A stretch of 64,000 nt of DNA from NCBI GenBank assembly GCA_015065425.1, contig SVQH01000007.1, forward strand, positions 39,038 to 103,037. Direction: 5' to 3'. The translations under genes were made by a program, and so were the position numbers. A model generated the notes under the pieces. It was not told where the DNA came from and searched no databases. It worked only from the letters and a program-made list of their open reading frames with translations. This stretch comes from Oscillospiraceae bacterium. Its GTDB lineage: Bacteria; Bacillota; Clostridia; Oscillospirales; Acutalibacteraceae. Below are positions 56,297-57,147 of this stretch, in pieces; the stretch's first letter is position 1; each line of letters opens with the position of its first letter.

Positions 56297-56325
56297 TTGA
56301 ATTTTTATTTTCCGTTTGGTAATAT
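56297..56325 (+). promoter_or_regulatory. candidate sigma-A promoter of mini-protein array B
   Basis: TTGAAT, 17-nt spacer, TAATAT, about 64 nt upstream of the first ATG, inside a 490-nt AT-rich non-coding gap. Confidence 0.45.
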
Positions 56326-56388
56326 ATTGCTGTAAGATATCCTAATGGGTTTCTTATACAATTTTTTAGCGAAAGAGAGGTGCACACA

Positions 56389-56505
56389 ATGGATAAGATT
56401 GCAGGACTTGCTGAATACCTCGGCGCATGGCTCAAGGAGCTCATCAAGACAATCATGGAAATGATGGATTGGCTTGAAATCAACTTCGGTGGCGAAGCTG
56501 AATAA
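56389..56505 (+). CDS. mini-protein B1, 38 aa (MDKIAGLAEYLGAWLKELIKTIMEMMDWLEINFGGEAE)
   Basis: Hand-translated. AGAGAGGTG lies 6 nt before the ATG. The product has 8 acidic and 3 basic residues and an amphipathic helix. Confidence 0.65.
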   Translation: MDKIAGLAEYLGAWLKELIKTIMEMMDWLEINFGGEAE

Positions 56506-56555
56506 TTTCAGAAATTGTTTTTAATTTTATTTATTTATGAAAAGAGGTGCGAATA

Positions 56556-56690
56556 ATGGATTTTGATTTCATCACAAAGATCATTGATGATATCGTAGCA
56601 TTCATCAAGTCTGCTGTTGCTAACCTTCAGAAGTTCATCGCCGGTTTCAAGGGCGGTAATGCTTTTGTAGTACCCGAAGACGCAGAATAA
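56556..56690 (+). CDS. mini-protein B2, 44 aa (MDFDFITKIIDDIVAFIKSAVANLQKFIAGFKGGNAFVVPEDAE)
   Basis: AGAGGTG lies 6 nt before the ATG. Codon choice is like hup (AAG 4 to AAA 0, ATC 5 to ATT 1, TTC 4 to TTT 2). Confidence 0.7.
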   Translation: MDFDFITKIIDDIVAFIKSAVANLQKFIAGFKGGNAFVVPEDAE

Positions 56691-56746
56691 TTCTATTAAG
56701 TAATTTATTATTTATTATATCTTACAGTAAAGTGAGGTGCAAATAA

Positions 56747-56866
56747 ATGGAACAGTTCTTCGATTGGCTCAGATATTGGGTTGAAATGATCATCGAAATG
56801 ATTGAAAATACAAAGGAATGGTTTGCTAAGGCTTTCCCTGCAGAAGAAGAAACACCTGCTGAATAA
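56747..56866 (+). CDS. mini-protein B3, 39 aa (MEQFFDWLRYWVEMIIEMIENTKEWFAKAFPAEEETPAE)
   Basis: GTGAGGTG lies 7 nt before the ATG. The helix is Trp/Phe-rich and the tail is acidic. Confidence 0.65.
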   Translation: MEQFFDWLRYWVEMIIEMIENTKEWFAKAFPAEEETPAE

Positions 56867-56922
56867 TTTCAATCAATGAACTTATATAATTTTATTAAAT
56901 CACGAAAAGAGGTGCAACATTA

Positions 56923-57069
56923 ATGGATATCCAGACAATCATCAACGACATCATCGGTTTCATCGAGAGCTTCCTTCAGCAGCTTGAAGCATTCTTCGCT
57001 TCTATCGTTAAGGTAAACGGATGGGATGATCCCGCTAACTATCCCGACAACTTCCCCAAGGCTGAATAA
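56923..57069 (+). CDS. mini-protein B4, 48 aa (MDIQTIINDIIGFIESFLQQLEAFFASIVKVNGWDDPANYPDNFPKAE)
   Basis: AGAGGTG lies 8 nt before the ATG. All 7 Ile codons are ATC and all 5 Phe codons are TTC. A terminator follows. Confidence 0.7.
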   Translation: MDIQTIINDIIGFIESFLQQLEAFFASIVKVNGWDDPANYPDNFPKAE

Positions 57070-57115
57070 TTCAAGGTGAAGTAATATAATTTTTTTATAA
57101 AAATTATGCATAATT

Positions 57116-57147
57116 AAAAAAGGGTTCCCAATAGGGAGCCTTTTTTT
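57116..57147 (+). terminator. rho-independent terminator of array B
   Basis: ggttccc-aata-gggagcc (7 bp, one G-U) followed by ttttttt. Confidence 0.75.

Follow-up and report, generated by a model that had tools for sequence, protein, structure and literature searches.

The 64-kb stretch of Oscillospiraceae DNA analysed here, in the following called the window, carries on its + strand a compact operon, array B (56389–57069), in which four mini-genes are accompanied by an operator-like block, a promoter, a palindrome, and a terminator. An earlier note had proposed four open reading frames (ORFs) at this locus, and all four were found on the + strand where it had placed them. They encode the peptides B1 (56389–56505; 38 amino acids (aa), MDKIAGLAEYLGAWLKELIKTIMEMMDWLEINFGGEAE), B2 (56556–56690; 44 aa, MDFDFITKIIDDIVAFIKSAVANLQKFIAGFKGGNAFVVPEDAE), B3 (56747–56866; 39 aa and Trp-rich, MEQFFDWLRYWVEMIIEMIENTKEWFAKAFPAEEETPAE), and B4 (56923–57069; 48 aa, MDIQTIINDIIGFIESFLQQLEAFFASIVKVNGWDDPANYPDNFPKAE), the last of which has a helix followed by an aromatic/Pro tail. 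Array neighbourhoods were also read in each of a set of related loci, labelled L001–L027, where the B3-type gene is the third gene of every four-gene array.

Expression signals and coding evidence

The four array B start codons are preceded, at distances of 6, 6, 7, and 8 nt, by the ribosome-binding sites AGAGGTG or GTGAGGTG, in agreement with the 6–8 nt described before; the site of B1 is AGAGGTG at 56376–56382. These Shine-Dalgarno sequences are the strongest in the window. The arrangement GAGGTG-N5-9-ATG occurs 12 times in the 64 kb compared to an expectation of 1.7 ± 1.4, and seven of these sites lie in front of the mini-ORFs of array B or of its sister operon, array A (see below), while four precede ordinary genes. 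The twelfth belongs to a 36-aa ORF (27921–28031) within a radical-SAM gene (27461–28924) and is probably a chance match.

A sigma-A-type promoter spans 56297–56325 (+) and consists of TTGAAT (56297–56302), a 17-nt spacer, and TAATAT (56320–56325), with TGG at 56317–56319 as an extended −10 element (TGn). This promoter had been listed as a candidate in the earlier note and turned out to be conserved at every orthologous locus examined, in the form TTGAA[AT]-17-TA[AT]TAT in L001, L007, L009, L014, L018, L024, and L026 and with the variant TTGCAA in L021. It is absent from the list of our promoter scanner, which scores sites against the consensus out of 12, because its score of 8/12 falls one below the threshold. 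At the other end of the operon, an intrinsic terminator (57115–57152, +) has 15 pairs, a loop of four, and a T-run; the terminator noted earlier after array B is thereby confirmed (57115–57148), and its stems co-vary between loci. A stem-loop in the 5′ leader was considered as an mRNA stabiliser and is not claimed, as RNAalifold gives −1.0 kcal/mol with broken pairs. An Rfam scan of 55850–57350 returned no family match, only sub-threshold noise around the terminator.

Four intact ORFs in identical paralogue order are present in about ten distinct relatives (L001–L009, L014, L018–L020, and L024–L027), so that homologues do preserve the reading frames, and B4 alone as a query retrieved eight homologues with 64–98% identity. 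The lineage L021–L023 has a two-gene array, which in L021 (5824–6105; likewise in L022 and L023) encodes a B1-type peptide of 42 aa and a B2-type peptide of 34 aa, the latter lacking the tail. The ratio of nonsynonymous to synonymous substitution rates (dN/dS) over the concatenated ORFs is 0.15–0.39 in every diverged pair, with an excess of third-position changes, and both parts of the peptides are constrained (0.35 for the helix core, 0.40 for the tail). The ORFs are intact at every locus, and length differences between orthologues preserve the reading frame. Synteny of the arrays is kept across saturating divergence, and no plasmid or phage copies were found.

The codon usage points in the same direction. 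Codon bias, calculated as log2(high/background) towards the usage of the window's two most biased genes, amounts to 0.27–0.44 bits per codon for the four genes in frame (pooled 0.34; z = 4.8 compared to other window genes) and is about zero or negative in the other five frames. AAG and AAA are used in array B at a ratio of 11:0, against a background of 37%, and the codon counts reported before are exact (B4: ATC 7/7, TTC 5/5, AAG 2/0; B2: AAG 4/0, ATC 5/1). The bias of array A is weaker (z = 2.8). With 1:1 orthologues in about ten relatives, purifying selection, and a frame-specific codon bias that is distinguishable from out-of-frame controls, the view that the array B ORFs are real protein-coding genes is strongly supported.

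From the strength of the Shine-Dalgarno sequences, a codon bias that equals that of the window's two most biased genes, the conserved strong promoter, and the terminator we infer that the peptides are abundantly translated, as had been proposed; every sequence proxy agrees on this point. Array B is thus almost certainly an operon in its own right, inherited vertically and equipped for very high expression. A region that encodes no proteins, be it an AT-rich spacer with chance ORFs, a small RNA, or a type I toxin-antitoxin module, would fit the very short ORFs, the failure of some gene callers to report individual members (A4 in L012), and the antisense promoter-like matches that are present in the AT-rich spacers, but it is effectively refuted by the dN/dS values, the intact ORFs with frame-preserving length changes, the in-frame-only codon bias, the lack of an Rfam match, and the weak fold of the 5′ leader and, for a type I toxin, by helices that are amphipathic and acidic rather than transmembrane and cationic, by the lack of an Rfam antitoxin RNA, and by array signals that point to high, not repressed, expression.

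Gene callers treat these ORFs inconsistently. A4 is uncalled in L012 (GCA_017513165.1, around 8399–8533), although sister contigs contain its DNA, and in several database entries the N-terminus has been spuriously extended to an upstream GTG, TTG, or ATG codon; examples of mis-called or uncalled members are L012 (~8399–8533), L016 (5416–5595), and P0005, P0007, P0030, P0069, P0072, and P0075. The mini-protein family is therefore under- and mis-annotated.

A shared putative operator and a family of mini-proteins

Upstream of the array B promoter lies an operator-like block (56243–56278, +) with the core TGTTATAAATGTAAA at 56256–56270. In the whole window, zero-mismatch matches to this core were found only at array B and at array A, a sister operon of four mini-genes (9292–10031, +) where the core reads TGTTATTTATGTAAA (9168–9182, +) within a block at 9155–9190. 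The two arrays are alike in having the operator, four genes, GAGGTG ribosome-binding sites, and a terminator. Array A encodes A1 (9292–9468; 58 aa), A2 (9499–9648; 49 aa), A3 (9706–9858; 50 aa), and A4 (9897–10031; 44 aa), all on the + strand, its promoter has TTGTGT (9219–9224) as the −35 and TATGAT (9242–9247) as the −10 element, and its terminator lies at ~10067–10095. Orthologous A arrays were found in L010–L013 and L015–L017.

The core ends 26 nt before the −35 element in array B and 36 nt before it in array A, a difference of one helical turn. Counted in 23 loci (~240 kb) besides the window, or about 300 kb together, the 15-bp operator consensus TGTKATNNRTGTAAA occurs as a single copy per locus in 22 of the 23, on the strand of the array and nowhere else, at a constant position 124–136 nt upstream of the first mini-ORF ATG. 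The block contains TGTWAW hexamers with a spacing of 9–10 bp and is conserved at all B loci, including those with peptides of only 30–45% identity. Since the same operator is found at both arrays and is absent elsewhere, the arrays would form one regulon, and one DNA-binding regulator probably controls both of them, and hence all eight peptides, through this putative operator. By-eye comparison with cre, CodY, Spo0A, and PhoP boxes gave no convincing match.

A second DNA element is specific to the four-gene B arrays. The 14-bp palindrome AATTATGCATAATT (57102–57115, +) immediately precedes the array B terminator; its sequence is 100% identical in every four-gene B array, even though the stems of the terminator and the peptides vary. 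The window contains it once, and neither the two-gene array of L021 nor the A arrays have it. As RNA it would form a very weak all-A/U hairpin, and it may be a protein-binding or processing site. In the A arrays, another small hairpin follows the last stop codon, ahead of the terminator (10033–10060 in the window, TTGCATAATATATTATGTAA; 6130–6165 in L015, TGTGTAGGGTCTCCTTACATA), which differs in sequence and preserves its pairing. A dif-like site was considered for the palindrome after array A and rejected, as its arm spacing is unsuitable and it is not conserved in L015.

Database searches did not connect the peptides to any described family. The eight window peptides gave no match to Pfam, NCBIfam (both screened by hmmscan at a permissive E ≤ 10), or PHROGs at permissive thresholds, and B1–B4 gave none to PADLOC at permissive thresholds. 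A PDB search with a profile of B4, B2, and A1 returned nothing significant; its non-significant near-hits are all helical: the chaperone CesA, itself a coiled coil, and the designed coiled coils CC-Pent and Alphabody. When all eight paralogues served as queries in a word-indexed search, 144 proteins were retrieved, and the 120 listed are 34–91 aa long and have no annotated function; among these listed matches, each is an orthologue (at least 63% identity) of one of seven paralogues, and none is of the A3 type. The B4/B2/A1 profile was also run exhaustively with HMMER over 1.84 billion representatives and gave 35 hits; 33 are free-standing proteins of 34–68 aa that share the architecture, and two are false positives among long repeat proteins. 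Seeding the search with divergent members gave 67 hits, all of 42–57 aa.

Named sources of these proteins are few, and all are metagenome-assembled genomes assigned to Acutalibacteraceae, Oscillospiraceae, or "Clostridia bacterium"; in the searches run, the family was not found in any cultured isolate, plasmid, or phage. The A2 peptide of the window occurs verbatim in 82 data blocks and the B2-type peptide of Hadza-named records in 155, the latter representing a lineage that is apparently from the human gut. A search of 8 million papers with six signature sequences found no match, and the mini-protein family and its putative regulon are previously undescribed.

The earlier note had assigned both arrays to one family. 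Profile-to-profile comparison of the paralogue groups by hhalign bears this out for B2, B4, and A1 (83–96%: B2–B4 95.6%, A1–B4 83%), and A2–A4 (92.7%), A4–B1 (72%), and A3–A4 (50%) extend the network. Homology among the remaining groups is transitive, with weak links for B3 and A3, that of B3 being the weakest (B1–B3 32%). The shared operator independently ties arrays A and B together.

Predicted structure and conservation of the peptides

With family alignments as input, AlphaFold2 models B4 as a single helix (residues 3–32, pLDDT >90; mean 89) with a short tail at pLDDT 76–86, and B1 likewise as a single helix (residues 2–33, pLDDT >90; mean 90.1) with a short tail. The hydrophobic moment over 18-residue stretches is 0.52–0.60 for B1–B4, with z ~3 compared to shuffles and a mean hydrophobicity of 0.29–0.39, which substantiates the amphipathic helices described earlier. 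Hydrophobic residues, at 3-4 spacing, make up about half of the helix. The B peptides have no visible signal sequence at the N-terminus, and the modelled helices begin at residue 2–3. The products are, with near certainty on the basis of these models, four distinct leaderless peptides, each consisting of an amphipathic alpha-helix of about 30 residues and a short, usually acidic tail.

Within the orthologous B groups, conservation is 0.78–0.93 at polar and 0.84–0.92 at hydrophobic helix positions (0.81–0.92 when the A groups are included), so that both faces of the helix are conserved and the constraint is residue-specific, beyond mere amphipathicity. The B1 core LGAWLKELIKT is invariant among aligned, correctly called members (13 orthologous clusters), as is ITKIIDDIVAFIKS of B2 across 15 orthologous clusters. 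Tails are more variable than helices; an aromatic/Pro tail, G-[YW]-[ED]-[ND]-P-x-N-[YF]-P, is nevertheless conserved and common to B4 and A1.

The Met-Asp or Met-Glu starts, the Ala-Glu ends, the net charges of −5, −3, −7, and −6 for B1–B4, and the lack of Cys, all pointed out before, hold in the window. As rules of the family, the starts, the ends, and the strong acidity do not: the human-gut version begins with MG or MK, orthologues finish with EVSE, EGE, EEA, PKK, and similar residues, and net charges are −1, −3, 0, and −4 in the human-gut lineage (L018) and range from 0 to −7 among orthologues overall.

The composition of the tails offers a possible hint at location. Tail-like acidic segments rich in E, T, A, and P were found in three of 57 window ORFs, and all three encode lipoproteins (5816–6286, 6596–7456, and 38952–40730) with E/T/A/D-rich tethers that begin no more than about seven residues past the lipobox Cys (...CGG-x-EETTA...). 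The GG-x-EETTA motif is common to these tethers and to the A3 and A4 tails, and the A-array tails GGEETTAANE, GGEEATEAP, and ADEETTAPEEETTA as well as the B3 tail AEEETPAE are tether-like in composition. This likeness gives modest, indirect support for an extracytoplasmic location of the peptides. One of the lipoproteins (5816/6026–6286) is nearly all ADETTEAA repeats and has the strongest codon bias among the small ORFs of the window.

Genomic neighbourhood

In the window, array B is flanked by the divergent ychF and by an FkbM-type methyltransferase gene (PF05050), neither of which had appeared to be an obvious partner, and the related loci agree. ychF is the most persistent neighbour of array B; it is separated from the array by a dihydrodipicolinate synthase (DHDPS) gene in L021–L023, and in L007, too, DHDPS lies immediately upstream. 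Downstream, the methyltransferase is found in most loci, CinA in L018–L020, and a convergent glycosyltransferase in L024–L025. The methyltransferase was considered as a modifying partner, and it persists in L007 despite the changed upstream gene, but it is replaced in L018–L020 and L024–L025; as no flanking gene is universal, we do not regard it as a partner. ychF was likewise rejected as a functional partner, with DHDPS intervening in L021–L023 and array A located elsewhere, and its adjacency is regarded as ancestral synteny. Array A follows an amino-acid ATP-binding cassette (ABC) importer and is followed by an HtrA-like protease gene or by an unrelated gene of 108 aa. In the loci examined, neither array A nor array B is linked to a gene for export, immunity, modification, or regulation.

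Several other ORFs of the window were recorded. A Cys-rich ORF of 119 aa (54452–54811, −) overlaps the end of ychF by 8 nt, ends with ...DGCSCY, has no Pfam match at E ≤ 1e-5, and is kept beside ychF (116–119 aa) in every related locus that reaches past this gene. The ORFs 44525–46696, 48170–49216, and 40871–41758 (723, 348, and 295 aa) also have no Pfam match at E ≤ 1e-5. The last of these is directly downstream of an extracytoplasmic-function (ECF)-type sigma factor gene (41748–42302), and its product may be an anti-sigma factor.

Possible functions of the peptides

The phenol-soluble modulins (PSMs) of staphylococci are leaderless amphipathic helices (alpha type 20–25 aa, beta type ~45 aa) that are encoded by tandem core-genome genes and made in extreme amounts (PMC5080381, PMC3419113). 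They were detected as abundant secreted peptides exported by Pmt (PMC2712073, PMC5080381), an ABC exporter that is encoded away from the psm genes (PMC3419113, PMC5080381), and the psm promoters are under direct control of AgrA (PMC5080381). The arrays share with this system, in particular with the psm-beta operons and the four-gene psm-alpha operon, short amphipathic helices with no visible signal sequence, tandem paralogous genes in the core genome, a probably very high expression, and the lack of an adjacent exporter gene, and their dedicated promoter-proximal putative operator parallels the control of psm by AgrA. PSM-beta peptides have a negative net charge, and array B resembles them in this respect as well as in size (38–48 aa). 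The hydrophobic moments of the B peptides are comparable and fall within the range computed for delta-toxin and PSMs. The host is different, Clostridia instead of Bacilli, and so is the build of the array peptides, each of which has one long helix with an acidic or Pro-aromatic tail and both faces conserved.

Homology to PSM-mec or delta-toxin, which the similar N-termini (MDF..IT.IID) might suggest, was rejected. Smith-Waterman shuffle z-values do not exceed 4.6 over 48 comparisons, which reflects periodicity only, and there is no profile match, so that the N-terminal likeness is treated as convergence; the Pfam models for PSM-alpha, PSM-beta, and delta-lysin gave no match at E ≤ 10, and none of these peptides appeared in the PDB profile search. 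The array peptides are thus analogues of PSMs, not homologues. Lack of homology is compatible with a PSM-like function because membership of the PSMs depends on physico-chemistry and detection and not on sequence (PMC2712073).

The interpretation that we tentatively favour, though with less than even confidence, is that the peptides would be abundant surface-active agents that act outside the cytoplasm, at the cell surface or at other interfaces, in the manner of PSMs. In this model, the peptides of an array would act together as surfactants, like the staphylococcal PSMs and especially the ~45-aa beta type. They would be synthesised without a signal peptide, probably retaining the initiator Met, and would leave the cell through an unlinked transporter or be released by lysis. 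Their hydrophobic faces would then allow self-association or the coating of hydrophobic surfaces, which could structure biofilms and help to colonise particles or mucosa, and their negative net charge would prevent contact with the anionic membrane of the producer itself.

Several observations weigh against this model. Conservation of the polar positions to the same degree as the hydrophobic ones would suit a specific assembly of proteins better than a generic surfactant, and the 1:1 orthology that is kept for each paralogue points the same way. The drift of the net charge to about zero in the human-gut lineage weakens the self-protection argument. No Pmt-like exporter was found in the 64-kb window, and beside either array no ABC exporter, Pmt-like or other, was found in any locus. 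Finally, the likeness of the tails to lipoprotein tethers comes from a small sample and could be a default composition of disordered segments. An extended form of the proposal, in which gut and rumen Clostridia of the Acutalibacteraceae/Oscillospiraceae, apparently with an abundant lineage of the human gut among them, would have independently evolved a PSM-type system of eight abundant, leaderless, probably N-formylated peptides under one regulator, with signal-peptide-free export, a role in biosurfactant activity or biofilms, and potential as ligands of host formyl-peptide receptors, appears rather unlikely to us.

In the main rival model, the four (or eight) peptides would form a hetero-oligomer in the cytoplasm or at the membrane periphery, a helical bundle or barrel packed through their wide hydrophobic faces and kept soluble by the acidic tails, with a structural, scaffolding, or regulatory role, for example as the coat of a hydrophobic inclusion or as a modulator of a membrane protein. 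We consider it possible, if somewhat unlikely. It would explain why number and order of the four paralogue types are fixed over deep divergence and why the two helix faces are equally conserved, and the 3-4 spacing with about half of the helix positions hydrophobic is as found in bundle or barrel cores. The equal translation signals imply co-stoichiometric synthesis, there is neither a signal peptide nor a linked exporter, and the non-significant PDB near-hits are helical only. However, the two-gene lineage L021–L023 indicates that such a complex would not strictly need four parts, the tails are similar to extracytoplasmic tethers, and no partner gene is conserved near the array.

The peptides also recall SpoVM in being amphipathic helices of a fitting length that lack a signal peptide and come from very small, often unannotated genes, so that they could be membrane-targeting small proteins on the cytoplasmic face of the membrane, with roles in sporulation, division, or envelope stress. 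The dedicated regulator site, which suggests conditional expression, and the HtrA-type envelope protease gene beside array A in some genomes would suit such a role. SpoVM, however, is a cationic, sporulation-specific peptide of 26 aa from a single gene, whereas here eight anionic paralogues are encoded in two arrays with vegetative-type expression signals, and the SpoVM Pfam model gives no match. A negative charge should moreover disfavour binding to anionic bacterial membranes, the promoter reads by consensus as sigma-A-like and not visibly as a sporulation-sigma type, a vegetative high-expression codon bias would be unusual for a stage-specific morphogenetic factor, and the HtrA neighbour is not conserved. 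This explanation is therefore improbable.

A leaderless multi-peptide bacteriocin that kills competitors, of the type of aureocin A70, garvicin KS, or enterocin L50, is likewise improbable. Array B resembles such systems (aureocin A70, garvicin KS, and enterocin L50/7A-7B/DD14) in its two to four tandem genes for leaderless, Cys-free helical peptides (38–48 aa, compared to 30–50 aa) without modification enzymes. Many leaderless bacteriocins are Trp-rich, as are some members of the present family. They are, however, mostly highly cationic, often with a saposin-like fold, and are encoded on accessory or mobile DNA, together with genes for transport and immunity (PMC6131525). The array B peptides, in contrast, are anionic (−3 to −7) single helices from a core-genome locus, immunity and ABC transporter genes are absent beside the array in about 12 distinct loci, the position is stable and under purifying selection with no plasmid or phage copies, and no bacteriocin family in Pfam or NCBIfam matches at E ≤ 10.

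By architecture, the array family is a new, non-homologous form of tandem leaderless amphipathic peptides, and by the sequence proxies described above its members would be among the most highly expressed products of organisms that are common in ruminant-type and, apparently, human-gut metagenomes. PSM production has been stated to be limited to Staphylococcus (PMC3419113). If the arrays are PSM-like, they would be the first such system outside the staphylococci and would contradict this restriction (PMC3419113); the idea is readily testable through peptide synthesis and metatranscriptomics, the eight peptides being short enough for synthesis. The question of how such peptides are exported could then be addressed in a second, unrelated system, and the shared operator provides a handle on the regulator and on the remaining regulon, possibly including the exporter. 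A hetero-oligomeric bundle would represent a new type of small-protein assembly. As a PSM-like system, in turn, the arrays could explain the colonisation of hydrophobic particles or mucosa by commensal anaerobes, and they would be a candidate gut source of formyl-peptide-receptor ligands.

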